This document shows positions 7,343 through 61,676 of a stretch of 64,000 nucleotides of DNA, in pieces. Position 1 is the stretch's first letter. Each line of letters starts with the position of its first letter. The DNA lies in the sequence record OR167180. One strand, given 5' to 3'. This DNA is from Escherichia phage MIZ4. The position numbers and the translations under genes are program-made. The notes beneath the pieces are model-generated. The model saw nothing but the letters and a program-made list of their open reading frames with translations. It was not told where the DNA came from and did no database searches.

Positions 7343-7372
7343 ATCTTACTACTCCCTTAATCCGGTGTCAAC
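7343..7372 (-). promoter_or_regulatory. Sigma70-like early promoter (TTGACA-18-TAAGAT) with GGGAGTA/TACTCCC palindrome around the -10
   Basis: Minus-strand read of 7372..7343; conserved upstream AAAAAGTAGTTGACA block. Confidence 0.55.
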
Positions 7373-7378
7373 TACTTT

Positions 7379-7591
7379 TTAATTTTTACCCGCTCGTGCA
7401 TTAATACGCATTTTCTGCATAGCCATGATCTGGTTTACTGCTTCTTCTTTACGTTCTTGCGTGATAACGTGACTAGATTCAGCAAACTCTCCCGCAACTT
7501 CTTCGACGATCTCGCGAACTTGAGAACGTCCAAAGATGCGGTTTCCTTCGTAGCTCATAAATTCAGTCACTACTTGCTCAATAGATTTCAT
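7379..7591 (-). CDS. Hypothetical small protein (70 aa)
   Basis: ORF with GGAGAA SD, preceded by promoter. Confidence 0.5.
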   Translation of the reverse strand: MKSIEQVVTEFMSYEGNRIFGRSQVREIVEEVAGEFAESSHVITQERKEEAVNQIMAMQKMRINARAGKN

Positions 7592-7624
7592 GTGATTCTC
7601 CTTCTTTCGTTTCGGTGTGGGAGT

Positions 7625-7653
7625 ATGTTAATACTCCCATTTCTTTACGTCAA
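7625..7653 (-). promoter_or_regulatory. Sigma70-like early promoter (TTGACG-17-TAACAT) with GGGAGTA palindrome
   Basis: Minus-strand motif; upstream AAAAACTGGTTGAC block. Confidence 0.45.
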
Positions 7654-7660
7654 CCAGTTT

Positions 7661-7903
7661 TTAGAAATTTTTCGCTTCTTCTTCGGTCATCATCACCGCG
7701 CATTCGTGCATAACTTTGAAAACCGGGTCAATCATATCGAATGCTTCGCGGGACAGTTTACGAGAAGCGATTTTGATTGCTTCAACGTCTTCTACTACAG
7801 GAACAAAAACAGTTTTCAGTTCGTCGAGCATGGCAGCTTCTTTTTCATTCAGGAAGATTCCAGCGTCGTACAATGCAACTTCGATAACATTAACTTTAAC
7901 CAT
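7661..7903 (-). CDS. Hypothetical small protein (80 aa; start moved to internal ATG with GGAGG SD)
   Basis: ORF-track start at 7966 would overlap the promoter; ATG at 7903 has AACTGGAGGAAATAAAA upstream. Confidence 0.5.
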   Translation of the reverse strand: MVKVNVIEVALYDAGIFLNEKEAAMLDELKTVFVPVVEDVEAIKIASRKLSREAFDMIDPVFKVMHECAVMMTEEEAKNF

Positions 7904-7937
7904 TTTTATTTCCTCCAGTTCGTTTCGGTATGGGAGT

Positions 7938-7966
7938 ATAATACTACCGATGACCTTTGGCGTCAA
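7938..7966 (-). promoter_or_regulatory. Sigma70-like early promoter (TTGACG-17-TATTAT)
   Basis: Minus-strand motif with GGGAGTA palindrome arm nearby. Confidence 0.5.
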
Positions 7967-8167
7967 CTAGTTTTTGTTATTTTCGTGAAAATTTTTAGTC
8001 GCCTCATGTGCTTTTCGCTGGGCTTCTTGTTGTGCTTGCTGGCGTGCTGCCTCTTGTGAAGCCATAACGGAAGCATTTGCAGCAGTTACAGCCGCTACCA
8101 TCGCTGCGGTATTAGCATTTACAGTACATGCACTAGCCAGCAAAGCAATTGCAATCATTTTCTTCAT
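7967..8167 (-). CDS. Small secreted/lipoprotein-like protein (66 aa)
   Basis: N-terminal signal MKKMIAIALLASAC with lipobox-like LASAC; Ala/Gln-rich body. Confidence 0.45.
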   Translation of the reverse strand: MKKMIAIALLASACTVNANTAAMVAAVTAANASVMASQEAARQQAQQEAQRKAHEATKNFHENNKN

Positions 8168-8334
8168 AGTTTCCCCTTTAGGTTATTTTCGACCTTCATC
8201 CATTCCGCGTATTCTTGTGCGGCTACTTTCGGATCTAGTCCGTCTTCGTACATTGCATCAAGTAATTCTTTGTCGGTGGGCTTATATCCTAGATAAGCCT
8301 CCACCCGATTTTTCCAAATTTTATACCAGTTCAT
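8164..8334 (-). CDS. Hypothetical small protein (start at internal ATG)
   Basis: Trimmed from ORF 8164..8403 to avoid overlap with upstream gene; start uncertain. Confidence 0.35.
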   Translation of the reverse strand: MNWYKIWKNRVEAYLGYKPTDKELLDAMYEDGLDPKVAAQEYAEWMKVENNLKGKL

Positions 8335-8338
8335 ATTA

Positions 8339-8611
8339 TCACCAATCAAGAGCGCGTGTCTCTGCGTCTTCCCATGCTTGATCCATAACAGCCTTGAAAA
8401 CATATTCTAAAGTATCATCTTTAGAGAATCCGAAGACCTTAGACGGGATATCTTCAATTGCTACTCCAGCAACTTCTGCATTACGCGCTTGGCAATAATG
8501 CAACTCTAAGTTATCGAGATAGCGACCGCCTAATTTCTCCATATCATCCCAGCATTTCCAGTAACCTACTTTATTTGCAATTGCTAACACTTTGCTGTTT
8601 TCGTTGCACAT
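8339..8611 (-). CDS. Hypothetical protein (start at internal ATG with AAGGAGAATCAAAG SD)
   Basis: ORF 8339..8674 trimmed to ATG preceded by strong SD; promoter upstream. Confidence 0.45.
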   Translation of the reverse strand: MCNENSKVLAIANKVGYWKCWDDMEKLGGRYLDNLELHYCQARNAEVAGVAIEDIPSKVFGFSKDDTLEYVFKAVMDQAWEDAETRALDW

Positions 8612-8642
8612 CTTTGATTCTCCTTTTGTTTGGTATGTGTGT

Positions 8643-8672
8643 ATTATGCGAGGCTGGATTCGTGAAGTCAAC
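8643..8672 (-). promoter_or_regulatory. Sigma70-like early promoter (TTGACT-18-CATAAT)
   Basis: Minus-strand motif immediately downstream of a terminator hairpin. Confidence 0.45.
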
Positions 8673-8676
8673 AACT

Positions 8677-8711
8677 TTTTAAAATAAAAAAGCCGACCAC
8701 AAGGATCGGCT
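8677..8711 (-). terminator. Rho-independent terminator-like hairpin after ORF 8722..9117
   Basis: agccgacc..ggatcggct inverted repeat followed on the minus strand by a T-run. Confidence 0.45.
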
Positions 8712-8721
8712 TAATAATCAG

Positions 8722-9117
8722 TTACTTACTAAATTTCTTTTTGGCTTCGTCTACCGCATGAGATGCCAGTACCGCAGCCGCATGTGCACTTTTATCTGTG
8801 TTGCAGAGAACGCCCAGATAAACATCACGCCAAAGTTTAATCATCTCGTAGATCATATCAATATCATTTTCTTGTTTGTTGGCGATGCTATTCGTTGTTA
8901 TCTGGTAAGGTAACGGCTTAATCTGTACTGGTTCCGCCATAGGGCTAATCGGTTGCGGATCAGTCATAATAGGTGCTGTTGTGGGTGGTGTTTTCCATAC
9001 GCCATTATTCCACGGTTTAATCGTTGTATCGTAAAGTTTATAAGGATTTTTGTCTGGGTCAACCATCCAGGCATGATGAGTACCCAAACCATTTGAAGTA
9101 ATGCGTCGTTCAGTCAT
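8722..9117 (-). CDS. Hypothetical protein (131 aa)
   Basis: ORF in array. Confidence 0.5.
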   Translation of the reverse strand: MTERRITSNGLGTHHAWMVDPDKNPYKLYDTTIKPWNNGVWKTPPTTAPIMTDPQPISPMAEPVQIKPLPYQITTNSIANKQENDIDMIYEMIKLWRDVYLGVLCNTDKSAHAAAVLASHAVDEAKKKFSK

Positions 9118-15713: not shown

Positions 15714-15734
15714 CCTTTTGTTTTCGATGGGGAC

Positions 15735-15763
15735 ATTATGATATATCCCCGATCCAGTGTCAA
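15735..15763 (-). promoter_or_regulatory. Sigma70-like early promoter (TTGACA-17-CATAAT) with GGGGAT/ATCCCC spacer palindrome
   Basis: Minus-strand motif; upstream AAAAATCTGTTGACA. Confidence 0.5.
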
Positions 15764-15770
15764 CAGATTT

Positions 15771-16070
15771 TTAATCTTTTTTCAGTGCATCCATTACTCG
15801 CTCTGCGATCAGTTCTCGTAAGCACTGATAACCATGATATTTGATGGCAATGTCACGCAGATCATTAACCAGTTCCCGTACTTCATGGTCTTTCAGATCG
15901 TCTCTGTATTTCGATTTAACCGTGTCTTTAGGTGGATTGCGGATAACCTGAAAACCTTGTTCTGCAATCACTGCGGCTTCGCGCTGGCGTTCATGTTGTA
16001 CTGTATTTTTGATCAGGTCTGCTTCCATGAACTTTGCCATACTCATCATCATGTTATTCTTTTTGCTCAT
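15771..16070 (-). CDS. Hypothetical protein (start at internal ATG MSKKNN..)
   Basis: ORF 15771..16151 trimmed because the promoter lies at 16095..16122; ATG at 16070 has GAGGA SD. Confidence 0.45.
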   Translation of the reverse strand: MSKKNNMMMSMAKFMEADLIKNTVQHERQREAAVIAEQGFQVIRNPPKDTVKSKYRDDLKDHEVRELVNDLRDIAIKYHGYQCLRELIAERVMDALKKD

Positions 16071-16094
16071 TATTAAATCCTCATAAAAGAAAAG

Positions 16095-16122
16095 GGAGAC
16101 TCCCATTATAGAGAATCTCCCT
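16095..16122 (-). promoter_or_regulatory. Sigma70-like early promoter (TTGACA-16-TATAAT) with GGGAGA..TCTCCC palindrome
   Basis: Consensus -35 and -10 hexamers on the minus strand just downstream of the gp39 stop. Confidence 0.55.
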
Positions 16123-16135
16123 TGTCTGTCAAGTG

Positions 16136-22523: not shown

Positions 22524-22551
22524 AATTGATTCTCCTTAGTTGGCATGTGTG

Positions 22552-22581
22552 TATTATTGTCTATCTGGTTTGTGCTGTCAA
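22552..22581 (-). promoter_or_regulatory. Sigma70-like early promoter (TTGACA-18-ATAATA)
   Basis: Minus-strand motif upstream of ORF 21768..22523. Confidence 0.4.
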
Positions 22582-23088: not shown

Positions 23089-23157
23089 AATAAAAAAGCC
23101 TCCAATCTTTCGATGGGAGGCATAATAAAACCATTATAGAGTAGTGTCAACTAATTT

Positions 23158-23682
23158 TTAGTAGCCGCGTTCTTGACGGGCGAAGTTTTCAGCATTTTTC
23201 AGATAGTACAGAATAAAGAGTTCTTGAGCGTCAATACCCAGCGGGATCATCTTTGACAGAATGAAGTGGATCGCGTCCACAAATTCAAATTTCACTTCAA
23301 GCTGATCTTCTGGTGACAGTTCAGAGAATTTACGCGCTCGCGCTTCTCCGTGGTTCTTTTTCCACATTTTCCAGATTGCACTTGCATCTTTACCATTGGA
23401 CATTCCACCCAGCGATGTGTAAAGCTCTCGTGTTTCGTCTGCGATAGCGTCATCCATCCGTTGCATCCAATCCAGCATTTCACCGCAAGTCTCTAGCTTA
23501 GTTGGATTTGGGACCCAATCAAATTTTTCGGATAATGCAACCTGCAAACCAGTTTGCATTTCGAGCATCACCTGAAACGGATCTTTACCTTCTGCAATCG
23601 CGTGATGATATGCGGCGATAGCCGCGTTAATATCTTTTTCGTTAACCAGACCAGCACAAGAATTAAATTCTGACATATTCAC
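23158..23682 (-). CDS. 56: dCTP pyrophosphatase gp56-like (MazG-type NTP pyrophosphohydrolase)
   Basis: 174 aa; block similarity to T4 gp56 as recalled (DPFQVMLEMQ, PEDQLEVKFEFVD, LYYLKNAENFARQERGY); position upstream of primase. Confidence 0.7.
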   Translation of the reverse strand: MNMSEFNSCAGLVNEKDINAAIAAYHHAIAEGKDPFQVMLEMQTGLQVALSEKFDWVPNPTKLETCGEMLDWMQRMDDAIADETRELYTSLGGMSNGKDASAIWKMWKKNHGEARARKFSELSPEDQLEVKFEFVDAIHFILSKMIPLGIDAQELFILYYLKNAENFARQERGY

Positions 23683-24728: not shown

Positions 24729-24932
24729 TTATAGCTCAAATTTCATGAAAGTTCCTACACTTTCATTTTCATTCTCTCCGTTTTCATCTAAGCCAAATTT
24801 GTAGACACTACCATCTGGCGATGTGTAAGAGAATACACGAAAACGTCCTACTGGGTCAAGTTCTGTAAATTCATATTCTTTTCCGGCTTCAAAAAGTGCA
24901 TATGTGCTTTTAAGACATTTCATCGTAATCAT
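24729..24932 (-). CDS. Hypothetical protein (67 aa)
   Basis: ORF; ATGA overlap with upstream small ORF. Confidence 0.45.
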   Translation of the reverse strand: MITMKCLKSTYALFEAGKEYEFTELDPVGRFRVFSYTSPDGSVYKFGLDENGENENESVGTFMKFEL

Positions 24933-25072
24933 TTAAGCGCCACCGACAACAGAATGAGAACTACACCAACATACATTGTGATCTCGGATAACTTTTCTGT
25001 TTTTGTTTTGTGTCCAGATAATCCGAAAACAACAACACCGATAATAGCGGACAGCAAGCCAACGATAAACAT
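24929..25072 (-). CDS. Small two-TM membrane protein (47 aa)
   Basis: Hand-translated MFIVGLLSAIIGVVVFGLSGHKTKTEKLSEITMYVGVVLILLSVALK; stop overlaps the next start (ATGA). Confidence 0.4.
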   Translation of the reverse strand: MFIVGLLSAIIGVVVFGLSGHKTKTEKLSEITMYVGVVLILLSVALK

Positions 25073-25079
25073 GATGATA

Positions 25080-25256
25080 CTAAGCACCGTCTTTCTCCTT
25101 TTTGCGTTTTTCTTTACCCGCTACACTAGGTCCACGATTGGTAATAGATCCGCTCGTTTCACCTGCTGCGATCTTCTCAGGATTGCCGCCAGCATCGCCA
25201 GCGGTCATATCTTCTTTGAGTTTATTTTCTTCAACAAACTGTTTAAATCCAATCAT
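25080..25256 (-). CDS. Small hydrophilic protein (58 aa)
   Basis: Hand-translated MIGFKQFVEENKLKEDMTAGDAGGNPEKIAAGETSG..; start overlaps upstream stop (ATGA). Confidence 0.35.
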   Translation of the reverse strand: MIGFKQFVEENKLKEDMTAGDAGGNPEKIAAGETSGSITNRGPSVAGKEKRKKEKDGA

Positions 25257-29210: not shown

Positions 29211-29438
29211 CTATTCAGTTAATCCGTAATACTTTAATTGCTTCATTGTTATTCGACCTTTGTAGTGCTCTTGAATTAACTTTTTCATCGCATCAACATC
29301 GATCGTCACAAATACTTCGTTGCTGTGATTTCCGTGAACTTTCTTGAAATGCTCTATGCCTTCCTCACGTTCACGTTTAATCTTTTCAATGTCTCTCATA
29401 ATATATTTCTCACGTTGGCGGGTATCGTCACCCAACAC
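29211..29438 (-). CDS. Hypothetical protein (75 aa), the only ORF between uvsX and 43
   Basis: Charged soluble ORF; occupies the locus where T4 carries beta-gt, 42 and imm. Confidence 0.45.
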   Translation of the reverse strand: MLGDDTRQREKYIMRDIEKIKREREEGIEHFKKVHGNHSNEVFVTIDVDAMKKLIQEHYKGRITMKQLKYYGLTE

Positions 29439-29460
29439 CCGCCATTATACACACTTTATC

Positions 29461-30937
29461 TTAAATGTCAAACAGGTCAGTCAGAGATGCCACTTTTTCA
29501 TATTGCAGCTTTGCAGCCGTGGTAATGTTCTCCAGTGGTTTGACGAAAGTCTTATTAAACAACAAAGGCCAGTCCAACCACTTCAACACCTCTGATTCAA
29601 TTTCTGGCGGAATACGAGTACCAGACAACCAACCAAAACAGATTTCACCAAACGGATTTCGATCTTTCAGCGGTACAATCATAACCTTCTCGCCCTCACG
29701 AATCGGATCTAGTCCGAATTTTCGAGCATTACGATTATAACACAATACACTCTTAACCGCATACGGACAACCCTTAATCGGATACCCGTTTGAATCGCTG
29801 TATTTCTGTAGGTTGTTTGCAGATGATACCGCAGCAACATCAAGATAGTCAAGTTTTCTAAATTCTTGCTCAAAAATACCGTAGTATTCCTGCAATGAAT
29901 CTTCACCTTCCTGCAACATACGGCGAATACATTCTTTCAGTGATTTCTGACATGCTTTAGGGGTGGAGCTACGTTGCGTTTCCAAGCCCATGATTTTTAG
30001 CTTAGGTTCAGCAAAGCGCGTTCCTTCCATATCCCAAACATTAAGAGCATACCGCTTTTTACCAGTCCAGAATCCACCGATACCCGCAGATTTCAACGGA
30101 GGACCAGCAATTGCCTCTCGGTCCATAAACATCAAGTGCTCATAGTTGTTCATGTACTCGCATAACTCGCGATATCCCTTGTCGATAATAGGTTCCATTC
30201 GATGTTTACCGAAATTATCAAGGAAGTCAACAAGTTTTTCGGTATCGTCGAAACGGTCTTCCCCGCCAACCTTATCAATAACATTGTTAACCAGCACATA
30301 AACGGAGTCAGTATCACAATAACGAACATATGCAAAATCAGTCGTTCCGCAAAGCTCGTTTAAGTATTCGTTAATCTTACGCTCAATCCACTGAATTGCA
30401 AGCTGACCGAACAGTGTGATCGCACTAGCGTTACGGAGATCATAAAAACGGAATTTAGGATTCCCCAACGCACCATAAAGGGAGTTGATCAAAACTTTTC
30501 GAGAAAGCTGGTTTGTATTGCACAAGATCGACTCGTCTTTACATTCTTCCAGCAATTTCTCTAAGGCATCTTTACTTAATTCAGAAAGCATCGATTTAAA
30601 CGCTTCATCAAAGTCGTGACGCACTTCAACGCTATAGCTAATGGTTCCCCCATAAACATGATTTTCATCGTGTAGAATCGCTTTACATAGTTCAGCATTG
30701 CGATCACATGCCAACATCATGTTTTTGTACTGCTTACGCTGATCGAATACCTTTTTAATCTCAATCGGTACGATACCATGAATATCTTTTCGATACATCC
30801 ATCCGTTAGGCGAGCAAGAATACTCATCACTAGGACGCGGTGCAGTTTTATTGATATACTCGTGCATCGGTGCAGCATCAAAAGATCCAGCGATTGTTTC
30901 AGGCGAAATATTAACCTGACGGATGATTGATGGATAC
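29461..30937 (-). CDS. 43: DNA polymerase gp43, exon 2 (palm C-terminal part, fingers and thumb)
   Basis: Contains family-B motif B KVLINSLYGALGN and motif C YCDTDSVY; reading frame continues upstream of the annotated ATG through YPSIIRQVNISPETIAGSFDAAP to the intron 3' end. Confidence 0.85.
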
Positions 30938-32051
30938 CATTATGTTCAGCGCGGTTCGCTACTCCCGCGCCCGTTCTCTTGCGAACTGCTACATGTCACC
31001 ATGTAGATCAGACTATATCACATTCTCATAGAGAATCCTGCCATTTCGAATCGCTTGATTCTACTCTACTCGGTTCGTTACCCTTTCGATAGTCGTTGAA
31101 CAACTGCATCTTTAAGCTCATTTTGATCAAACGGTGTTCTCTTACAGTACCCGCTATAATTCTTGGCAAAAGGTTTCTTCTTACCAAAGATCTCTTTTCC
31201 TGAATTATGTGCTTCAACAAGAAAATTCACCATTTCATCAAATGTGAAACTTGTAAATTTAGCATAAGTTTCATTACGTTTTGACATTATTTTACTCATA
31301 ACTTCCGGTCGTTTAGACGCTGAATTTTCGCGCTTCTCGCCAGCATTAAATGATACTAACTCACCGGAAACATATCTAGGATCATCACAACTAACTCTAA
31401 ACCGATTTCCTTCCTTATCCTTAACGATAACAGTATTCTTTAGCTTTTCTGCCATAGAATCAAGACCTTTTCGTATAGTGTCCTCATCAGCCCCGAAATA
31501 TTTCTTTCCGCTCATATCGGTTCTGGCTTTTCCGGTCTTGTTTTCGGATATTTTCAGTCTAACTTCCTCTCGCTTGGCTGGGTTATTGTCTCCAGCGAAT
31601 GCATCTTTGGTTAACGCCTTCACTTTATCGTCATAAGATCCTCTAGAGATGAAAGCATATGCTCTCTTGCATTCACCGTTATTGAATATTAAGCACAATA
31701 ACCGATGCGCCTCGACGTGGTCTTCAAACTTAAGCCTAACAAGATTCCATTTATCTAACCGATATTCAGGGAACATTGACTTCGGGCATATATGATGCAC
31801 CTCGGAATATTCTTCACCCTGATACGGATTAGACACCAGTTTAATGTAGTCGTTTAATGCTTCCTCGTTATGTATTTCGTACTTTCTTAAAATGTCTTTC
31901 ATCTCGCGCCTCCAATGTATATCAATATTTATATACATTATAAGACACGTTAGCTCAAAATGCAACTGCTGCTGATTGTCTCCTTAGAGATTTCCCAGCA
32001 ATTAAGCAGGTTATTCGATCACTGTCACCAGTGAAAGCCCCATATCAGTTT
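30938..32051 (-). mobile_element. Group I self-splicing intron (td-like) interrupting gene 43 in motif A, carrying an HNH homing endonuclease gene
   Basis: Exon junction restores DLTSL|YPSIIRQ; intron ends ..GATATAGTCTG..CATGGTGACATG..CTGAACATAATG (resembles the T4 td intron 3' terminus as recalled); 5' part contains GACAATC-type core element; 5' exon ends in T, intron ends in G. Confidence 0.75.
31078..31902 (-). CDS. Intron-encoded HNH homing endonuclease
   Basis: HNH motif ..EVHHICPKS..EDHVEAHRLL; start set at ATG with GGAGG SD (ORF track uses upstream TTG); TATAAATA late-promoter-like element upstream inside the intron. Confidence 0.7.
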   Translation of the reverse strand: MKDILRKYEIHNEEALNDYIKLVSNPYQGEEYSEVHHICPKSMFPEYRLDKWNLVRLKFEDHVEAHRLLCLIFNNGECKRAYAFISRGSYDDKVKALTKDAFAGDNNPAKREEVRLKISENKTGKARTDMSGKKYFGADEDTIRKGLDSMAEKLKNTVIVKDKEGNRFRVSCDDPRYVSGELVSFNAGEKRENSASKRPEVMSKIMSKRNETYAKFTSFTFDEMVNFLVEAHNSGKEIFGKKKPFAKNYSGYCKRTPFDQNELKDAVVQRLSKG

Positions 32052-33253: not shown

Positions 33254-33335
33254 AATATAAACTCCTTCACTTACGAAAGACACTCATTATAGGGGAATCG
33301 ACTTAGTTTGTCAATACCCCTATCCCATCAGTATC

Positions 33336-35252: not shown

Positions 35253-35317
35253 ATAATCACCTCTCACAAATTACATCATTAAAACGGGGAGTATTTACAC
35301 TCCCCACAAACATTATA

Positions 35318-36007
35318 TTAGTCGGTGTAGCTGGAGTCAAGGTCACACGCGATCATATAAGATACGGTTTCACTTGCCAGCCATACAGCCTTACGGCGAG
35401 TGAAGCTCAGTTTGTAATCGCCGAAGTCAGTAGCAACCAGTTTCATGTTATCTTTACGAATAAAGAAATGGAAGTCTGCGGTTCCGGTATATTCGCCCAT
35501 ATCAAGACAAAACATCTCATTAGGATTATTTTTGTCAATCTCTTCCCAACCTTTGATCATCAGACGACCATCAATCGGAAGAAATTCAAGGCGGTCCACT
35601 TTAAGCTGATTGCTCATTTTCATAAGCTGTTTCAGATCGTCGTTGCTCAGTTCGTAATCTACATCGCTTGCAGGTGGAGTAACTCGGCCTTTCGGTGATA
35701 CGATAGCGGCAGCACTAGCACCAGGATAATTAATTTTCAGACGATCATTAGACACACGAATGTTTCCGGTGCGGTCATCAACCGTAATATCTGCTTCATC
35801 GCCCACCAGATTCAGAATACCCAAGAAAGAGTTAAGATCATAGATCCCAATTTCGTGTTCCAGTTCTTGATTCAGAGTCGCTTCACCATATACAACGTTT
35901 GTCATGTTTTTGGTGATCAGGACGTTTCCTTTTTTCAGGATGATACCTGGGTTAATAGCGGAAAAGTTTTTCAGGGTAGCAATGGTTTCTTTAGTCAGTT
36001 TCATCAA
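35318..36007 (-). CDS. 45: Sliding clamp gp45
   Basis: 229 aa; N-terminus MKLTKETIATLKNF.AINPGI resembles T4 gp45; synteny. Confidence 0.85.
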   Translation of the reverse strand: MMKLTKETIATLKNFSAINPGIILKKGNVLITKNMTNVVYGEATLNQELEHEIGIYDLNSFLGILNLVGDEADITVDDRTGNIRVSNDRLKINYPGASAAAIVSPKGRVTPPASDVDYELSNDDLKQLMKMSNQLKVDRLEFLPIDGRLMIKGWEEIDKNNPNEMFCLDMGEYTGTADFHFFIRKDNMKLVATDFGDYKLSFTRRKAVWLASETVSYMIACDLDSSYTD

Positions 36008-36433: not shown

Positions 36434-36809
36434 TTGCGATCAGACGAGTTACTACTACGCTAGCGGCTTCAATCAGCAGTTCATCAGTGTCAATCTGATA
36501 ACCCTTTTCGAGAATATCTTTACCTCGAATAGTTTTAGCGCCTTTAGCAATTGAATCATCGTAATACTTGCGCATTGCCGCGATCCATTCTTTTTGCACC
36601 ATATCATCAATATGCGCGTACAGTTCAAAGCGTGCTTGCTGCGGGATAACCTTCATTTTAGCTTTCTCGCTTTCCGGCATTTGTAGTACCCACGCTTTAC
36701 GGATCTTGTTCATTGCTCGGTCAAATTCGAGGCTGGTTTTCTTGTTCTGAATGTCTGCTACAGTAATTTTAGCCAGGTTTGCGGAAGTAGTCATAATATT
36801 AATCTCCAA
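36417..36809 (-). CDS. Hypothetical protein (130 aa)
   Basis: ORF in array. Confidence 0.45.
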   Translation of the reverse strand: MEINIMTTSANLAKITVADIQNKKTSLEFDRAMNKIRKAWVLQMPESEKAKMKVIPQQARFELYAHIDDMVQKEWIAAMRKYYDDSIAKGAKTIRGKDILEKGYQIDTDELLIEAASVVVTRLIAIADGK

Positions 36810-36824
36810 AATAAAATCAGTATA

Positions 36825-37055
36825 TCACGTTCTAAAGTTTGTTGCAACCCCAGCATCAGGGTAATCAAGTTTATCAAAGTTGGGGACCAGCATAAACTCA
36901 TGATGACGACAAGACAACATTTTTGTTATGTCTTCATCGCTGTATATGCTGTTTTTCATATCCCCCATACTAACTACATATTCTTCACCGGAATATAGAT
37001 TGATTAAGGTATACAATTCTAACTCCGGCTGCGTTACTCTGTCAAATGTTAACAT
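36825..37055 (-). CDS. Hypothetical protein (76 aa)
   Basis: ORF in array. Confidence 0.4.
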   Translation of the reverse strand: MLTFDRVTQPELELYTLINLYSGEEYVVSMGDMKNSIYSDEDITKMLSCRHHEFMLVPNFDKLDYPDAGVATNFRT

Positions 37056-40089: not shown

Positions 40090-40102
40090 TCAATTTTTAT
40101 AG

Positions 40103-40131
40103 AGTATAACGGGGATTTCTCCCCGCGTCAA
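40103..40131 (-). promoter_or_regulatory. Sigma70-like early promoter (TTGACG-17-TATACT) with CGGGGAGAAATCCCCG spacer hairpin
   Basis: Minus-strand motif; palindrome lies exactly between -35 and -10. Confidence 0.5.
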
Positions 40132-41166
40132 CTAACTTTTTGCGCTATTTACTTCGGCTAAAAGTTCATCAGAAATACGCTTGACCGCCGCAAGTTCTTC
40201 CGGTTCTAGGTTTTGTTCTTCCAGATATTCATAGACCATCTGAATAGTGCTTTTAACTTCAATAACACCTGTTTCCTGTGATGCGCTACTCTCCAGCTTA
40301 TGGACCACTTTTAGCTTGTGTACAACGGCCTCTAACGCGCTTTCTAACTTAGTTAACCCATTATCAGCGACCGTTGCGATAAGACGCACACTAAGCCCCT
40401 TAAAGCGTTCTACATCGATTTTATCATCTGACGGGTAAGTGATACGCACATGATAAGTTTTGTCATTCTGGATAAACTCTTTTTTGTGTGTATCGGTATC
40501 GAATACCCAAAACCCACGCGGATCGTTTTCGTCACCCGCCGTTAGTGTGTATGGTGTACCTATATACGTTACGTTACCGCCATCACTGATAGTATGAAAG
40601 TGACCCGAAAACACTTCACGGTATTTCTTTAGGAAGTCCGCGCTATAACCTTCGGATTTTAGCCCTTTATAGAAATAGTAACCGGACAATTCCCAATGGC
40701 CTACACAATATTCGCTGAATGAGTTTTGAATAAACTCTAAAATCTCTGATTTATTGTCATCACAAAACCACGGGAACAGATCAAATGATACACCATCAAA
40801 GGTGACTGTTTCCGGCTTATCAATAACCTTAATGCAATCATACTGGCTTAACACTTCACGCGGTGCGTTAGGCTGGATCTTGTTTCGTTTAAACATATCA
40901 TGATTCCCAACCGTGATATAACAAGTAATACCAGCCTCTTCCAGTAGCGGGATGATTTTCGTTCTATTAAAACGCATAGTTGCATGTGTGATTGCTTTTC
41001 GGCAATCAAACCAGTCCCCTGTCTGAATCCATGCCTTAATATTATGTTTTTTTGAATAATCGACTGCCTTTTTAATAGTATCAAGAATATACTCATGTAT
41101 CCACGGATCATCGTTGCCGATACCAGTATGCAGATCACCCAAAAGCAAAATTTTCATATTATACAT
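40132..41166 (-). CDS. 47: Recombination endonuclease subunit gp47 (Mre11/SbcD-like phosphoesterase)
   Basis: Metallophosphatase motifs LLGDLH, GDWFD, GNHD; blocks shared with T4 gp47 (GHWEL.G, SGHFHTIS, TAGDENDPRGFW). Confidence 0.9.
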   Translation of the reverse strand: MYNMKILLLGDLHTGIGNDDPWIHEYILDTIKKAVDYSKKHNIKAWIQTGDWFDCRKAITHATMRFNRTKIIPLLEEAGITCYITVGNHDMFKRNKIQPNAPREVLSQYDCIKVIDKPETVTFDGVSFDLFPWFCDDNKSEILEFIQNSFSEYCVGHWELSGYYFYKGLKSEGYSADFLKKYREVFSGHFHTISDGGNVTYIGTPYTLTAGDENDPRGFWVFDTDTHKKEFIQNDKTYHVRITYPSDDKIDVERFKGLSVRLIATVADNGLTKLESALEAVVHKLKVVHKLESSASQETGVIEVKSTIQMVYEYLEEQNLEPEELAAVKRISDELLAEVNSAKS

Positions 41167-48078: not shown

Positions 48079-48120
48079 ATTTGATTCTCCTGTAAAGTTG
48101 TATCTCGTCTTGATGAATAT

Positions 48121-48149
48121 AGTATAGGGGATCTCGTGATCCCCGTCAA
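48121..48149 (-). promoter_or_regulatory. Sigma70-like early promoter (TTGACG-17-TATACT) with GGGATC/GATCCC spacer palindrome
   Basis: Minus-strand motif. Confidence 0.45.
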
Positions 48150-49238: not shown

Positions 49239-49267
49239 GTTGTCCTCTCGTTGTTTTCGATGTGAGC

Positions 49268-49295
49268 ATTATACATTAGCTAATCATATTGTCAA
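49268..49295 (-). promoter_or_regulatory. Sigma70-like early promoter (TTGACA-16-TATAAT)
   Basis: Minus-strand consensus hexamers immediately downstream of the nrdD terminator. Confidence 0.55.
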
Positions 49296-49300
49296 CACCC

Positions 49301-49332
49301 CAAAACGAAAAGCCGACCCTTTCGGATCGGCT
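49301..49332 (-). terminator. Terminator-like hairpin after nrdD
   Basis: agccgaccctttcggatcggct imperfect inverted repeat with flanking T-run on the minus strand; near-identical copy at ~61691. Confidence 0.45.
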
Positions 49333-51200: not shown

Positions 51201-51244
51201 TGTATCACCTATGAAAAAGCGGGATTTCTCCCGCTCGTTGATAG

Positions 51245-51739: not shown

Positions 51740-51769
51740 AATATAATCCTCTCGTTGTTAAGTGGGAGT

Positions 51770-51798
51770 ATTATAGCATACTCCCTTCGCATGTCAAG
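51770..51798 (-). promoter_or_regulatory. Sigma70-like early promoter (TTGACA-17-TATAAT) with GGGAGTAT/ATACTCCC palindrome
   Basis: Minus-strand motif. Confidence 0.55.
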
Positions 51799-52972: not shown

Positions 52973-53003
52973 AATATAATCCTCTCGTTGTTTAGATGGG
53001 AGT

Positions 53004-53032
53004 ATCTTACTACTCCCGTTTCATCATGTCAA
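53004..53032 (-). promoter_or_regulatory. Sigma70-like early promoter (TTGACA-17-TAAGAT) with GGGAGTA/TACTCCC palindrome
   Basis: Minus-strand motif. Confidence 0.5.
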
Positions 53033-53883: not shown

Positions 53884-53914
53884 TGTTGATTCTCCTTCTT
53901 GATTAGATGGGAGT

Positions 53915-53943
53915 ATTTTACTACTCCCGTTTCATGTTGTCAA
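53915..53943 (-). promoter_or_regulatory. Sigma70-like early promoter (TTGACA-17-TAAAAT) with GGGAGTA/TACTCCC palindrome
   Basis: Minus-strand motif just downstream of gene 49. Confidence 0.5.
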
Positions 53944-57105: not shown

Positions 57106-57139
57106 AATATAATCCTCACATCGTTCATTTGATGCGGTC

Positions 57140-57169
57140 ATTATATGATAACCGCATTTTCATGTCAAC
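57140..57169 (-). promoter_or_regulatory. Sigma70-like early promoter (TTGACA-18-TATAAT)
   Basis: Minus-strand motif; upstream AAAAACTGTTGACA. Confidence 0.5.
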
Positions 57170-57174
57170 AGTTT

Positions 57175-57549
57175 TTAAAAATCTTCTTCCGGTTTATATC
57201 GACCGTCATCGACTGGTTTTGGACTGAATCCTTTATGTGTGCGCGGCTTCGCTTCCGGTTTACCAGCAATCATCAAACCAAAACATTTCAGCCCTTTATA
57301 ACACATAACAATATTAACCACGGTCCAAGTTATAGGCCATATAATAGAACAAATGGCATATGCTCCAATATCGACCTCTTTGGTGTCCTTGTCGAATCTG
57401 GCGTACAAGCAAATTATAAGATAGGTGATCATTGCACCAGTAGGCCAAATATAAAGCACATTAACAATATCTTGTGTTGTCACGTTATCCTCCTTACATG
57501 TCTTGCAGTGCATAAAAGCATTTTTCTTCGTAGTCATAGAAAATGTCAA
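57175..57549 (-). CDS. Hypothetical membrane protein (124 aa)
   Basis: Several hydrophobic helices; start uncertain. Confidence 0.4.
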   Translation of the reverse strand: MTFSMTTKKNAFMHCKTCKEDNVTTQDIVNVLYIWPTGAMITYLIICLYARFDKDTKEVDIGAYAICSIIWPITWTVVNIVMCYKGLKCFGLMIAGKPEAKPRTHKGFSPKPVDDGRYKPEEDF

Positions 57550-57772: not shown

Positions 57773-57815
57773 TTTTGATTCTCCTTAAGAAAGTATGTTT
57801 CGTTTTGATGTGTGT

Positions 57816-57844
57816 AGTATAGGGGATACGTGATCCCCTGTCAA
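57816..57844 (-). promoter_or_regulatory. Sigma70-like early promoter (TTGACA-17-TATACT) with GGGGAT/ATCCCC spacer palindrome
   Basis: Minus-strand motif. Confidence 0.5.
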
Positions 57845-57851
57845 CAACTTT

Positions 57852-58181
57852 TTATGATTTTAGTGAATTAACTAATACATCAAAATGATGTACAGAGCAC
57901 ACCTTATTAAACACATATTCATCATGTTTAGGAATAGCGCCTAACCGCTTTATTTCGCTCGTTGACACGATAAACCGTTTATCCGGTGCATTTACCTTAT
58001 ATGCTTCAACAACGCACGGGAAACGCGTTTCAGAGAGTTCTGGATAGTTTTCTGAATCCATCAGGACAATGAATACCCTGTTACATTGATTGTAGAATCC
58101 TGTTTTTGATTTCATCAAGTTTTCTTCTCTGTACAATTCGTGCAATCTTCCTTTCATGATTTCGTTGGTTCTTGTCTTCAC
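57852..58181 (-). CDS. Hypothetical protein (109 aa; overlaps next ORF, start uncertain)
   Basis: ORF overlapping 58081..58422 by ~100 nt in a different frame. Confidence 0.35.
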   Translation of the reverse strand: MKTRTNEIMKGRLHELYREENLMKSKTGFYNQCNRVFIVLMDSENYPELSETRFPCVVEAYKVNAPDKRFIVSTSEIKRLGAIPKHDEYVFNKVCSVHHFDVLVNSLKS

Positions 58182-58676: not shown

Positions 58677-58694
58677 AATATAATCCTCAATTGA

Positions 58695-59821: not shown

Positions 59822-60083
59822 TACATGATTTTAATGCATCAGTCGAGGTGTCATAGCGAGTATTATCATAGCACCAATAACCATCTGTCAACTGATAAAT
59901 TAATCCATCCTTTTTAGCGTCGATGAAAGACAATTCTTTGAAAGTTTCTACTTTCTTTGCTGATACTCCACGGTCACGGCGTTTATAGAGTTTAGCTAAA
60001 ACGCGTTCAGCTTGTTCCTCTTTATCGCCAGACAGATCCCAGATGACGTTTCTGATATGCTTGATTAATTGTTCAGTGGTCAT
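59793..60083 (-). CDS. Hypothetical protein (96 aa)
   Basis: ORF with AAGGAGAATCAAAT SD, promoter upstream. Confidence 0.45.
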   Translation of the reverse strand: MTTEQLIKHIRNVIWDLSGDKEEQAERVLAKLYKRRDRGVSAKKVETFKELSFIDAKKDGLIYQLTDGYWCYDNTRYDTSTDALKSCNDHLRKTSI

Positions 60084-60113
60084 ATTTGATTCTCCTTAGT
60101 TGGTATGGTTATC

Positions 60114-60142
60114 ATTATACGGGGATTTCTCCCCGTGTCAAC
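60114..60142 (-). promoter_or_regulatory. Sigma70-like early promoter (TTGACA-17-TATAAT) with CGGGGAGAAATCCCCG spacer hairpin
   Basis: Minus-strand consensus hexamers; same spacer palindrome as the promoter at ~40103. Confidence 0.55.
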
Positions 60143-60144
60143 AA

Positions 60145-60366
60145 TTAAATGATCTCTGCTTCACCGTTAAGGAAGAAGGACCATGTTTTGTTAGGATAAC
60201 GAAGCGCCCATGATTCAGCAGTTTTAACACCAGCTTCGAACAATTGACGGCTGGTTACTTTAGCCATACCATCTTCGATGGCAACGTTTTCAATAATCAT
60301 CGGGTACTTAGCGCCACGCATGAAACCGAAGCCAGCGGAAGATTTGATAATTTTAACAGTTGCCAT
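60145..60366 (-). CDS. Small paralog family C member (73 aa; start at MATVKII)
   Basis: ..GFGFMRGAKYPMIIENV.. shared motif; ORF 60145..60420 trimmed to the ATG with AGGAGAATCAAAA SD. Confidence 0.45.
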   Translation of the reverse strand: MATVKIIKSSAGFGFMRGAKYPMIIENVAIEDGMAKVTSRQLFEAGVKTAESWALRYPNKTWSFFLNGEAEII

Positions 60367-60405
60367 TTTTGATTCTCCTAGAAAGTGTCGTGTTTCGATG
60401 GGTGT

Positions 60406-60434
60406 ATTATGCAATAACACCGGATCGCTGTCAA
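60406..60434 (-). promoter_or_regulatory. Sigma70-like early promoter (TTGACA-17-CATAAT)
   Basis: Minus-strand motif. Confidence 0.5.
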
Positions 60435-60452
60435 CACTTTATAAGAAAAATT

Positions 60453-60737
60453 TTAAATTAATCGAATATAACCAAGAATTTCAGCGCCTTTAGCCAGTCC
60501 TAAAACTTCCCATTCAAGGTCGCCGTAGTCATAATTTGCAACCATCAACTGACCATTTTTCATGCAGCAATCATGAGAGAAAATTTGCCCAGCATAAACT
60601 ACGATAGTAATAAACTTTCCTGATTCTGGCGGTGTGGAAGACAAAGCGACCATATGACCATTCAGCTTAGTAACCAGTGATGGAACAATAAAATTCGGGC
60701 TTACCTTAATACCGTTAAATTCGTTTGTGTCTTTCAT
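60453..60737 (-). CDS. Hypothetical protein (94 aa)
   Basis: ORF in array. Confidence 0.4.
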   Translation of the reverse strand: MKDTNEFNGIKVSPNFIVPSLVTKLNGHMVALSSTPPESGKFITIVVYAGQIFSHDCCMKNGQLMVANYDYGDLEWEVLGLAKGAEILGYIRLI

Positions 60738-61084
60738 GCCAGACCTCGCAAAACACTAATAGCATAATCATGCTGGTTATTCATAATATCAATTGCATTG
60801 TGATAACGAGCTAAACCATCAAGGATAAATTCTTGTTTATCCTGTTTCAGTTTGGTATCACGCGCAGCCATAAGAGCATCGAGAACAGGTCCAAAGTGAT
60901 TATCTAATTCATCTTCGGTTGCAATGTTTCCTATTGCCTCGTCGATCCGTGATTCTAATGCTTGCTTTTCGTTGATCACTTGCTGGGTATATTCCAACAC
61001 ATCAAGAATATCGCGGGTAACGTCGCCATGATAAGGTATTCCCGCATGAAGATGATCAATTAATCGCTGAATATCAATGTTCAT
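60734..61084 (-). CDS. Hypothetical protein (116 aa)
   Basis: ORF in array. Confidence 0.45.
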   Translation of the reverse strand: MNIDIQRLIDHLHAGIPYHGDVTRDILDVLEYTQQVINEKQALESRIDEAIGNIATEDELDNHFGPVLDALMAARDTKLKQDKQEFILDGLARYHNAIDIMNNQHDYAISVLRGLA

Positions 61085-61419
61085 TTGTAACCCTCCTCTG
61101 AAAGCACATCCCAGATCGTTGAGTCAAGATGCATTAAATTCCACATAATAGAGTCATAACTACCGAAGCCAGAAGTAAAAATTACATCACACTGGCGATA
61201 GGTCTTATGAAAATCGGTGGCTGTCTCTGCATCAATAGGCATATCGTCACCGGAAAGCACCAGACATTTAAGAATCATAACTCTGTTAGCCGTTGGCGCT
61301 TGCTTAGTCTTTTCAGCATATTTTTCGATGATCCGTTTTGCCTTTTCTTCTTTGATACGTCCAGACCAAATCCGGTTTCGGTATTGATTCATAATAATTT
61401 CAATCACATCATTTTGCAT
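61081..61419 (-). CDS. Hypothetical protein (112 aa)
   Basis: ORF in array. Confidence 0.45.
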   Translation of the reverse strand: MQNDVIEIIMNQYRNRIWSGRIKEEKAKRIIEKYAEKTKQAPTANRVMILKCLVLSGDDMPIDAETATDFHKTYRQCDVIFTSGFGSYDSIMWNLMHLDSTIWDVLSEEGYK

Positions 61420-61618
61420 TCTTCACGGTCTCCATAATTGTTTTGTAAGCCAGTTTAAGATGATCACCGAAAAACTTTGCATTGTTACCCTTCGGATCGC
61501 GGAGCATGGTTTCTACGATCTCATAGGCAGTAACAATTTCTCCTTTCTTTGCTGCATGTTCTACCATATACTTCAAAGTTTCTTCGGAGGAAAGTGCTGC
61601 GGCTACTGGATTAATCAT
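61409..61618 (-). CDS. Hypothetical protein (69 aa)
   Basis: ORF with AAAGGAGAACCAAA SD, promoter upstream. Confidence 0.45.
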   Translation of the reverse strand: MINPVAAALSSEETLKYMVEHAAKKGEIVTAYEIVETMLRDPKGNNAKFFGDHLKLAYKTIMETVKNAK

Positions 61619-61647
61619 TTTGGTTCTCCTTTGTTGTCGATGTGTGC

Positions 61648-61676
61648 ATTATGCTATACCATATTCCGGTTGTCAA
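61648..61676 (-). promoter_or_regulatory. Sigma70-like early promoter (TTGACA-17-CATAAT)
   Basis: Minus-strand motif adjacent to the terminator hairpin. Confidence 0.5.

Follow-up and report, generated by a model that had tools for sequence, protein, structure and literature searches.

Background

The coliphages RB49 and phi1 carry composite regulatory cassettes known as PeSLs (promoter-early stem-loops; Arbiol et al. 2010, PMC2839356), a description later extended by Comeau et al. (2014, PMC4122927). Each cassette combines a sigma-70 consensus with AT-rich upstream sequence and a stem-loop, which lies mostly in the -35/-10 interval or over the -10 (PMC2839356). Fusions to lacZ in RB49/phi1 showed the promoter activity of such cassettes, including promoter strength, and gave in vivo evidence of termination by the only stem-loop tested, which is outside the region analyzed here (PMC2839356). 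For RB49, the early consensus reportedly matches mapped 5' ends (PMC1524935).

The early promoters of T4 (summarized by Nolan et al. 2006, PMC1524935) share several features with the units described below: dependence on host sigma-70, control of many small early ORFs, an A-rich UP-like region around positions -40 to -44, a G at -36, and a preference for C at -3 to -1. The -35 differs, being GTTTAC in T4 and TTGACA, with G at -33, in RB49-type phages. T4 also has weaker stem-loops with a higher AT content, usually located 5' of the promoter. Intercistronic regions of T4-type phages reportedly also contain Rho-independent terminators with extra-stable tetraloops (GNRA, UUCG), a finding credited to Tuerk et al. 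in 1988.

We analyzed 64,000 nucleotides of Escherichia phage MIZ4 (OR167180), referred to here as the window. Over the stretches searched, it is 100% identical to Escherichia phage MIZ5 (Krischvirus, RB49-like T4-type), and it is 95-97% identical to RB49, phi1, and GEC-3S. Judged by sequence comparison, the repeats in the window are real but not new: they correspond to the PeSL cassettes published for RB49-like T4-type phages, a family known since the work of Arbiol et al. (2010) and Comeau et al. (2014). The window comes from the same genus as RB49 and phi1, and identity between its units and the orthologous sites of RB49, phi1, and GEC-3S is 91-100%. Units and published cassettes share the TTGACA-N17-TATAAT consensus, the AT-rich upstream region with an upstream stop codon, Gn-loop-Cn stem-loops in the same positional classes (mostly spacer or over the -10), placement 5' of small ORFs in hyperplastic regions, and an association with cassette indels. 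We found no essential difference, and the window represents another isolate. We assign a probability of roughly 80% to the reading of these units as PeSLs, including its promoter, sense-strand stem-loop, and recombination steps.

A strand-specific family of promoters

We catalogued 22 intergenic near-consensus sigma-70 promoters on the minus strand, each just 5' of a minus-strand ORF (Table 1); the initial annotation had proposed a family of at least 18. The layout comprises a -35 (TTGAC in all 22 units, TTGACA in 16), a spacer of 16-17 nt, a TATAAT-like hexamer, a C-rich discriminator, and a predicted +1 A located 7 nt past the -10. Commonly, an A-rich block lies 5' of the -35 and often holds the TAA stop of the upstream gene. 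The claim that this block is conserved holds in part: the strict form AAAAA(c/g)t.G occurs in about 9 of 22 units, and the remainder are merely A/T-rich upstream.

TABLE 1 Promoter units of the window, their associated stem-loops, and a free-standing terminator for comparison
Feature	Span	Strand	Promoter elements and context	Stem-loop position	Stem-loop
u7371	7336..7380	(-)	A-block with upstream TAA stop; -35 TTGACA 7371-7366; -10 TAAGAT 7348-7343; orthologue annotated as promoter in GEC-3S	7356-7337	GGGAGTA-N6-TACTCCC; -10 in loop; end = -1; +1 A = 7336
u7653	7618..7662	(-)	-35 TTGACG; -10 TAACAT	7639-7618	9-bp TGGGAGTAT-TAAC-ATACTCCCA spanning -10; longer stem reaches +1
u7966	7925..7975	(-)	-35 TTGACG; -10 TATTAT		Degenerate GGTAGTA/TACTCCC, one mismatch
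u7966, alternative weak stem		(-)		7950-7925	TCGGTA..TACCGA
u8671	8636..8712	(-)	AAAAAGTTG, TTGACT-17-CATAAT; terminator and promoter annotated in GEC-3S	8712-8690	Upstream terminator: canonical hairpin, T-run
u15763	15728..15773	(-)	TTGACA-17-CATAAT	15750-15729	GGGGAT..GTCCCC spanning -10; includes G.U pair
u16132	16084..16132	(-)	Perfect TTGACA-16-TATAAT; overlapping promoter and terminator annotated in GEC-3S	16123-16092	13-bp, spanning -10, then TTTTCTTTT; canonical terminator overlapping promoter
u22581	22546..22581	(-)	TTGACA-17-AATAAT; 5' of srd		None
u23150	23090..23159	(-)	TAAAAATTAG, TTGACA-17-TATTAT	23121-23098	Leader: GCCTCC..GGAGGC, T6; includes Shine-Dalgarno of ADP-ribosylase gene
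u29471	29416..29471	(-)	Perfect TTGACA-16-TATAAT; -35 within end of gene 43	29444-29416	Leader, 12-bp
u33314	33279..33323	(-)	Perfect TTGACA-17-TATAAT; 5' of gene 43	33323-33289	ATAGGGG/CCCCTAT arms bracketing -35 and spacer
u35340	35284..35340	(-)	TTGACT-17-TATAAT; 5' of gene 45; "hypothetical early promoter" in RB49 record	35307-35284	GGGGAGT..ACTCCCC, TTTT; 3' of -10
u40131	40096..40141	(-)	TTGACG-17-TATACT; 5' of gene 47	40126-40109	CGGGGA-GAAA-TCCCCG, fills spacer
u48149	48114..48149	(-)	TTGACG-17-TATACT	48144-48127	Spacer: GGGGATC-ACGA-GATCCCC; loop in relatives GCGA 9/10 (one of these with outermost pair mismatched), TCGC 1/10
u49295	49261..49332	(-)	Perfect TTGACA-16-TATAAT	49332-49311	Upstream terminator: GAAA loop, T-run
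u51797	51763..51797	(-)	Perfect TTGACA-16-TATAAT	51785-51764	GGGAGTAT-N6-ATACTCCC spanning -10; end = -1
u53032	52997..53032	(-)	TTGACA-17-TAAGAT	53017-52998	GGGAGTA-N6-TACTCCC; end = -1
u53943	53908..53943	(-)	TTGACA-17-TAAAAT; 5' of endonuclease VII	53928-53909	GGGAGTA-N6-TACTCCC
u57168	57132..57177	(-)	TAAAAACTG, then perfect TTGACA-17-TATAAT	57157-57132	10-bp ATGCGGTTAT..ATGACCGCAT spanning -10; one G.U pair
u57844	57809..57854	(-)	TAAAAAGTTG, TTGACA-17-TATACT	57839-57821	Spacer: GGGGAT-CACGT-ATCCCC; stem kept in relatives, loop differs
u60141	60107..60141	(-)	Perfect TTGACA-16-TATAAT	60136-60119	Spacer: CGGGGAGAAATCCCCG
u60434	60399..60434	(-)	TTGACA-17-CATAAT		Weak stem only, scored as none
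u61676	61641..61716	(-)	TTGACA-17-CATAAT	61716-61689	Upstream terminator: 12-bp, GAAA loop, T-run
Comparator, non-promoter	51218..51235	(-)		51218-51235	Free-standing intrinsic terminator GCGGGAGAAATCCCGC = AGCGGGA-GAAA-TCCCGCT, then TTTTT

With at most one mismatch, AAAAASTNGTTGACD has 9 matches compared to 0.33 expected, and exact TTGACD-N16-18-TATAAT has 11 compared to 0.22 expected; every one of these matches (9/9 and 11/11) is on the minus strand. Relaxed hexamer matches number 55 on the minus strand versus 8 on the plus strand. At 47-62 kb, every one of the 13 sites that agree with the hexamers at 11 or more of 12 positions is on the minus strand. The recurring minus-strand unit described earlier is confirmed: the promoter motif exists, is specific to one strand, and greatly exceeds chance expectation.

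Promoters annotated in the GEC-3S record coincide with 19 of the 22 units, and the RB49 record labels further sites as "hypothetical early promoter." Together with the near-consensus sigma-70 boxes, the published lacZ data, and the reported agreement of the RB49 consensus with mapped 5' ends, these annotations support the earlier proposal that the units are host-type early promoters. Just after infection, unmodified host sigma-70 RNA polymerase would read the two hexamers and the A-rich upstream block and initiate at the A within the conserved C-rich start region (CCCATC-type), so that every small early gene would have a strong promoter to itself. The literature establishes this step for RB49/phi1; for the window, we infer it from orthology and consensus.

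Stem-loops within the promoter units

Stem-loops occur in 20 of the 22 units (one of them degenerate and one a long-loop pairing across the -35). They lie 5' with a T-run, occupy the whole spacer, straddle the -10, or sit in the leader. Folding of the region from -45 to +8 gave a mean z of -2.2 relative to dinucleotide shuffles, with z < -2 in 14 of 22 units. Loops are often GAAA or GCGA. Counted from the predicted start, hairpins that span the -10 have their last base at -1, 0, or +1; it is at -1 from the predicted +1 A in the four GGGAGTA-type copies whose stem is an exact 7-8 bp.

The initial annotation sorted the palindromes into two classes. All six positions assigned to the first (7343, 7625, 7938, 51770, 53004, and 53915) have GGGAGTA..TACTCCC around the -10, that at 7938 being degenerate (GGTAGTA for GGGAGTA). 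Of the second class, spacer palindromes are found at 40103, 48121, 57816, and 60114; position 15735 was mis-assigned and belongs to the first class, because its GGGGAT..GTCCCC arms flank the -10.

The palindromes had been interpreted as double-stranded operators, through which a dimeric phage or host regulator would switch the early promoters off or on. Perfect palindromes do lie inside the spacers, between the hexamers or on top of them, in places where protein binding would obstruct RNA polymerase, and Arbiol et al. speculated that GGGG...CCCC is the target of a DNA-binding protein, though they meant a recombination protein (PMC2839356). However, the units lack a common half-site: there are at least six unrelated stem sequences (GGGAGTA, GGGGATC, CGGGGA, ATGCGGTTAT, AAGGGAGATTCTC, and others), the gap is 4, 7, 8, or 12 nt for GGGGA/TCCCC and 6 or 8 nt for GGGAGTA/TACTCCC, and position relative to the hexamers is variable. 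Spacer-embedded operators (lac/tet-type synthetic designs, MerR-family sites) have one conserved half-site, fixed spacing, and strand symmetry, whereas the units of the window vary in sequence, spacing, and position, and selection on them is strand-specific. The same hairpin type also forms the free-standing terminator at 51218-51235, whose hairpin is almost identical to the spacer palindromes in u40131 and u60141. In addition, early transcription in T4-type phages is shut off through modification of RNA polymerase (Alt/Mod, AsiA, Alc), and these phages are not known to use operator-binding repressors for this purpose. The argument that a palindrome located 5' of its own start site cannot work as RNA ignores how the genes are arranged: they run head-to-tail on one strand, so transcription of the upstream cistron includes the palindrome at its 3' end.

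Substitutions also argue against operators, since a duplex site does not predict strand asymmetry in the stems. A comparison of 11 genomes gave nine stem transitions; on the minus (sense) strand, each of them exchanges a Watson-Crick pair for a G.U pair or the reverse, and none produces A.C. When hairpins were seeded on Watson-Crick runs only, the non-Watson-Crick pairs inside them were G.T nine times and A.C never, compared to six G.T and nine A.C in the unpaired outer controls. By a hand tally of the 11-genome comparison, per-nucleotide variation in loops is approximately 3.6 times that in stems. Changes in hairpin-bearing spacers are confined to the loop or outermost pair; the hairpin-free spacers of u8671 and u61676 have several substitutions each. 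On the opposite side, a stem-breaking C>A is tolerated at the same stem position in u7653 (GEC-3S, OZ035808) and u51797 (Makalu_001), two units have no hairpin, and one has a degenerate stem. At the level of genome comparison, the G.U-compatible transitions demonstrate sense-strand selection on the stems, and they support the view that the stem-loops behave like sense-strand hairpins rather than repressor-bound double-stranded sites. We consider the operator interpretation very improbable.

The G.U asymmetry fits RNA and equally a hairpin in sense-strand single-stranded DNA, and it cannot separate the two. The stem-loops might act as DNA structures, with hairpins or cruciforms (single-stranded or supercoiled) serving as hot spots or protein targets in the recombination that yields PeSL mini-circles and any RNA effects being secondary. 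Mini-circle junctions in RB49/phi1 were mapped within or beside the stem-loop, the phage encodes endonuclease VII and gp46/47, and the cassette replacement at u60141 described below is consistent with exchange at stem-loop elements. Yet 7-bp stems are too short for easy cruciform extrusion and, as the PeSL authors themselves point out, 70-100 bp of cassette homology suffices for T4-type recombination. An RNA role is favored by the GAAA/GCGA loops and by the identity with genuine terminators, and one stem-loop terminated transcription in vivo (PMC2839356). On balance, a primary role as DNA structure seems improbable.

Proposed function of the hairpins

Under the PeSL reading, the G-rich/C-rich inverted repeat occupies promoter sequence that is free or compatible, either the spacer alone or the spacer pairing with the C-rich discriminator. 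In the spacer and -10-spanning classes, the hairpin does not extend beyond +1, except by one base in one unit, and would therefore be essentially absent from the transcript of its own cassette. Only polymerases arriving from the upstream cassette would transcribe it, with the RNA folding right after the upstream stop, where it may attenuate or terminate read-through or stabilize the 3' end of the upstream RNA; we propose that neighboring cassettes would thereby be insulated.

Stems rich in GC and loops of GAAA, GCGA, or CUUCGG (the last in a neighboring terminator of RB49) are shared with the extra-stable-tetraloop terminators of T4-type phages, and a T-run is present in the upstream (class A) and leader (class D) units. 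In contrast, no U-tract follows the spacer-class and -10-spanning hairpins, where the -10 hexamer or the transcription start (TATACT/TATAAT or ATC..) is found instead. Because these hairpins also fail a terminator scan, efficient intrinsic termination by them is doubtful, and a terminator function for them is something we infer. They might instead be RNA elements other than terminators, protecting the 3' end of the upstream cistron from exonucleases or acting as processing signals. The missing U-tract, the sense-strand selection, and the location directly 3' of upstream stop codons are all consistent with such roles, but the only published test scored its stem-loop, whose positional class may differ, as a strong terminator (PMC2839356). 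We regard protection or processing as possible, if rather unlikely.

Cassette replacement

As tandem near-repeats of 70-100 bp, the cassettes would be substrates for homologous recombination, through which small genes may be added, removed, or swapped, as has been published. We observed one such replacement. In all 10 relatives fetched for the region of u60141, a gene-38 cassette occupies that position; RB49, phi1, and GEC-3S differ from the window in having this cassette where the window has a single spacer-class PeSL, with the same spacer as u40131. The three relatives read at the sequence level have the order terminator, gene 38, terminator, promoter. Gene content in the 7.3-8.7 kb array also differs among relatives.

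Promoter units of the early region

Between window positions 7000 and 12000, the sequence shares 100% identity with Escherichia phage MIZ5 (OR167181.1, 71000-76000), and the region is 95 to 97% identical to at least 50 other Krischvirus genomes, including RB49, phi1, JSE, and GEC-3S. The minus strand holds all genes from 4.7 kb through the window end. These make up a T4-type early and replication region (rIIA/B, topoisomerase, dda, srd, modB, genes 61, 41, uvsX, 43, and 45, and further 46/47, 55, nrdD/G, gene 49, dam, rI, and tk), among which numerous small ORFs without known function are scattered.

The motif AAAAASTNGTTGACD, with at most one mismatch, occurs nine times, on the minus strand every time, compared to 0.33 occurrences expected from shuffles. 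The pattern TTGACD-N16-18-TATAAT occurs 11 times, again always on the minus strand, compared to 0.22 expected. A relaxed two-hexamer scan returned 55 matches on the minus strand and 8 on the plus strand, and between 47 and 62 kb, the 13 sites with 11 or more of the 12 hexamer positions matched are all minus-strand sites. We went through the minus-strand gene array gap by gap and assigned the best promoter to each gene start. This gap listing and gene-start pairing yielded 22 intergenic units with -35 starts from 7371 to 61676, named here by those positions (e.g., u60141). An extra perfect-consensus site, u15148, lies within an ORF upstream of rIIA. The initial annotation had proposed a family of at least 18 early promoters, which the catalog of 22 bears out. 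Its coordinates also hold, except that the palindrome at 15735 surrounds the -10 rather than filling the spacer, and the conserved upstream block that it described is present in strict form in about nine units.

Every unit has a near-consensus sigma-70 promoter (TTGACA-N16-18-TATAAT); all contain TTGAC, and 16 of the 22 contain TTGACA. When the units are aligned on the hexamers, A predominates at positions -9 to -5 and G at -1, with G directly before TTGAC in 15 units. Positions 2 (A) and 6 (T) of the -10 hexamer are invariant among the 22 units. The discriminator is rich in C, and 16 units have an A 7 nt past the -10, with T and C next. The upstream gene's TAA stop often falls inside the conserved A-block (e.g., TAAAAAGTAGTTGACA), and TAA is found within this block in at least six units. 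The units are intergenic and clustered in hyperplastic regions, and they precede small ORFs with their Shine-Dalgarno sequences and start codons.

Many good sense-strand matches to TTGACA-N17-TAnnnT also lie inside genes (e.g., 13190, 15148, 27035, 36145, 37045, and 59891). The RB49 record carries "hypothetical early promoter" labels inside 41, 46, and ORF031, genes that have matches in the window as well; the correspondence is at the level of genes. A scan of IMG/VR with the upstream block and both hexamers returned at least 120 loci, and among the 80 listed nearly all were single matches on unrelated contigs. Because these look like generic A-tract sigma-70 promoters, we consider them uninformative for the family described here.

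Promoter-hairpin units by position of the stem-loop, named by the start of the -35 hexamer
Class	Arrangement	-35 start	Strand
A	Canonical hairpin and T-run upstream of -35	8671, 49295, 61676	minus
B	GC-rich palindrome of 6-7 bp filling the spacer	40131, 48149, 57844, 60141	minus
C	Arms flank -10, hexamer in loop	7371, 7653, 15763, 51797, 53032, 53943, 57168	minus
C	Degenerate copy	7966	minus
C	13-bp version, followed by TTTTCTTTT	16132	minus
	Arms bracketing -35 and spacer, long-loop pairing	33314	minus
D	Hairpin in leader	23150, 29471, 35340	minus
	No hairpin	22581, 60434	minus

Stem-loops and identity with published cassettes

A stable stem-loop, as in PeSLs (the promoter-early stem-loops of RB49 and phi1), is present in 18 of the 22 units, with dG between -9 and -21 kcal/mol; in addition, there is one degenerate copy (-5.4) and one long-loop pairing across the -35. 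The stable stem-loop lies upstream in three units, in the spacer in four, over the -10 in eight (plus the degenerate copy), and in the leader in three, and the long-loop pairing lies over the -35 in one. The -45 to +8 segment exceeds dinucleotide shuffles in structure, with a mean z of -2.2 and z below -2 in 14 of the 22 units. The class B palindrome begins with the final base of the -35 hexamer or right after it and ends at the -10 or one base inside it. The class C 3' arm ends at -1 of the predicted +1 A in five of seven units and at 0 or +1 in the other two. The whole window has no Rfam matches at gathering thresholds, so the hairpins do not belong to a curated RNA family.

Approximately 50 PeSLs were described in each of RB49 and phi1 by Arbiol et al. 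(2010; PMC2839356). In that description, a PeSL comprises a sigma-70 consensus promoter, an AT-rich stretch before it that takes in the stop codon of the upstream gene, a stem-loop that is often polyG followed by polyC, and, at the 3' end, a Shine-Dalgarno sequence with a start codon. The same study reported strong promoter activity (about 13,000 Miller units, published for PeSL206/205 only), a stem-loop that terminates comparably to rrnB T1 (published for PeSL211/210 only), and recombination between neighboring PeSLs to give mini-circles; a protein target for the stem-loop was left open. Comeau et al. (2014; PMC4122927) extended the concept to other T4-like phages. According to Nolan et al. 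(2006; PMC1524935), the early consensus of RB49 fits the mapped 5' ends of its early transcripts, and RB49 has neither MotA nor middle promoters. Our literature search found no Krischvirus transcriptome paper and no follow-up work on PeSL mechanism.

The window units match the published PeSL anatomy point for point. In comparison to RB49, phi1, and GEC-3S, 21 of the 22 units and u15148 have an orthologue with 91 to 100% identity, and u60141 is a replacement. The GEC-3S record has deposited promoters and -35/-10 signals at 19 of the 22 units, and additional sites are labeled "hypothetical early promoter" in the RB49 record. Judged by sequence, the elements are members of the PeSL family, with every defining feature at this level present. 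The promoter interpretation is supported and already known.

Published PeSLs are also associated with cassette insertion, deletion, or replacement between close relatives, and the window provides two such cases. At the site of u60141, a gene-38 (adhesin) cassette is present in all 10 relatives fetched for that region; in RB49, phi1, and GEC-3S, which we read at the sequence level, the order is terminator, gene 38, terminator, class A promoter. The window and MIZ5 instead have one class B PeSL, and its spacer and that of u40131 are identical. In the tandem array at 7.3 to 8.7 kb, the small ORFs differ among RB49, phi1, Makalu_001, and MIZ5. Both the u60141 replacement and this array fit the published modular-shuffling role. 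Set against the site at 60081-60147, the gene annotated in MIZ5 as "tail fiber protein; host specificity" adjoins the distal tail-fibre gene on the plus strand (2923-3705).

PeSLs explain both the expression of dozens of small accessory genes of T4-type phages immediately after infection and the shuffling of these genes between phages as self-contained cassettes. Because both points are published for this genus, the window contributes one more isolate without new biology. The observation in the initial annotation is confirmed.

Duplex operators or sense-strand hairpins

The initial annotation argued that palindromes upstream of their own transcription start must act on DNA, as operators for a dimeric regulator. 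The first step fails because the genes are packed head-to-tail on one strand, so that transcription of the upstream cistron includes the palindrome at its 3' end. An operator of this kind would also be expected to have a shared half-site, fixed spacing, and strand symmetry, and we found none of these. There are at least six unrelated arm sequences, including GGGAGTA, GGGGATC, CGGGGA, ATGCGGTTAT, and AAGGGAGATTCTC. The spacing from GGGGA to TCCCC is 4, 7, 8, or 12 nt, and that from GGGAGTA to TACTCCC is 6 or 8 nt. The free-standing terminator GCGGGAGAAATCCCGC-TTTTT at 51218-51235 and the spacer palindrome CGGGGAGAAATCCCCG form nearly identical hairpins. Among the class A terminators, GAAA loops recur, the u48149 loop is GCGA in 9 of 10 relatives, and a CUUCGG loop is present in a neighboring terminator of RB49.

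We compared orthologues from 10 other Krischvirus genomes (phi1, RB49, GEC-3S, Makalu_001, OZ035808, LF73P4, JSE, Whisky, 011D4, and SSG23). A distant-mode blastn search with the gene-47 promoter region, seeking orthologous promoter-hairpins in other genera, matched only 58 Krischvirus records, which limits the comparison to relatives that are mostly 90 to 99% identical (one 86%). Read on the sense strand, nine stem transitions interconvert Watson-Crick and G.U pairs and none creates A.C, with events counted unpolarized and uncorrected for phylogeny. Since each Watson-Crick pair offers one transition of each kind, a 9:0 split is unlikely by chance (binomial, approximately 0.002 one-sided). In the static count, which is symmetric by construction because hairpins were seeded on Watson-Crick runs only, inner non-Watson-Crick pairs are G.T nine times and A.C never, and unpaired outer neighbors are G.T six times and A.C nine times. 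Neither count has the strand symmetry of a duplex site.

By hand tally, loops have approximately 17 changes in 97 nt and stems 15 in 310 nt. Substitutions in hairpin-bearing spacers are confined to the loop or the outermost pair, and the hairpin-free spacers of u8671 and u61676 have several substitutions each. By these comparisons, selection acts on pairing in the sense strand: strand-specific G.U tolerance, the variability of loops relative to stems, and identity with free-standing terminators indicate selection as sense-strand hairpins rather than as duplex protein-binding sites, and the operator interpretation is not supported. The carrier is most likely RNA, although it may instead be a sense-strand DNA hairpin. 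This comparative evidence is a modest addition that narrows the question left by the original authors. GATC (Dam) sites in several palindromes were considered as a regulatory feature and set aside; approximately six units contain GATC, close to the base-composition expectation in a rough estimate by hand. Another candidate feature, GGAG in the 5' arms as a putative RegB target, was set aside as well.

Terminator reading of the promoter-embedded hairpins

We defined an intrinsic terminator as a GC-rich hairpin with a U-tract directly after it (at least 5 T in 8 nt). The units overall do not have this structure, which is found only in the upstream-class hairpins and at 16132 and 23150; the T-run at 35340 is weaker than these. 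The 8 nt after the hairpin contain two to four T in all four class B units and zero to three in the seven -10-spanning units without a T-run and the degenerate copy. What comes after the hairpin is the -10 hexamer (UAUACU or UAUAAU) in class B and AUC.. at the start site in class C. In the terminator scan, no class B hairpin and no class C hairpin without a T-run passes. The sole published functional test concerns one stem-loop outside the window (PMC2839356). In classes B and C, full termination is no more plausible than attenuation, pausing, or protection of the 3' end.

The placement of these hairpins may reflect what the promoter tolerates. The spacer would be free of sequence constraint, and a hairpin could sit there without harming the promoter; the discriminator is C-rich even in units without a hairpin (ACACACATC, GCACACATC). 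Given these two properties, pairing would be possible without promoter damage, between a G-rich spacer segment and the C-rich discriminator in class C and between two spacer segments in class B. The end signal of one cassette would thereby be compressed into the start signal of the next.

Alternatively, the spacer and -10-spanning hairpins lacking a U-tract might not be terminators at all and instead constitute a distinct device, a sense-strand structure read by a phage factor. If it acts on DNA, the factor may be a recombination protein or a structure-specific one; if it acts on the upstream transcript, it may process the RNA or protect its 3' end. If true, such a device would couple the RNA end of one cassette to the start of the next; we consider this alternative unlikely.

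Two units, u7653 (in GEC-3S and OZ035808) and u51797 (in Makalu_001), tolerate the same C>A substitution in the TACTCCC arm (TACTCCC to TACTACC), which breaks the stem. The u7653 change lies at approximately 7622 in the window, and the two cases involve different PeSLs in different genomes. The repeated change could result from gene conversion between PeSL copies or from selection on the discriminator.

Additional observations in the window

The following three loci are on the minus strand. The leader of the ADP-ribosylase (modB-like) gene has a hairpin at 23098-23121, GCCTCC..GGAGGC followed by T6, which contains the Shine-Dalgarno sequence GGAGG and may therefore be an attenuator or translational control element in the gene's own transcript. 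The CDS at 15771-16106 in the MIZ5 record has its annotated start at the ATG within the TATAATG of the u16132 -10, ahead of a strong terminator hairpin; in phi1 and RB49 the start is annotated 36 nt further downstream (ORF of 300 nt), and this downstream start looks correct. In the gap upstream of the thymidine kinase gene (62632-62705), a T4-type late-promoter motif, TATAAATA, is found at 62675-62668; its first base is also the final one of the 5' arm in a 9-bp inverted repeat, CCCCAGATT..AATCTGGGG (62683-62644), and the motif continues into the loop.

Four gaps that are long and "intergenic" in the MIZ5 annotation (8165-8341, 24930-25082, 36792-37044, and 61616-61949) hold small ORFs, including one 56-aa ORF and one 47-aa hydrophobic peptide, and are not non-coding. 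At the positions that correspond to these, relatives annotate ORF018, gp45.2/ORF033, ORF084.1, and GEC-3S BN201_0267.

Gene 43 (DNA polymerase) is split by a 1.1-kb insert at 30938-32062 (minus strand) that is missing from phi1. The insert contains an HNH endonuclease ORF (31078-31902) and, at 30989-31249, a sub-threshold Rfam match to a group I intron (32.8 bits, gathering score 50, E = 3.4e-6). It is found in approximately 11 of 58 Krischvirus records, with part of it in JSE, and a portion also matches phages of Acinetobacter, Proteus, Providencia, and Erwinia.
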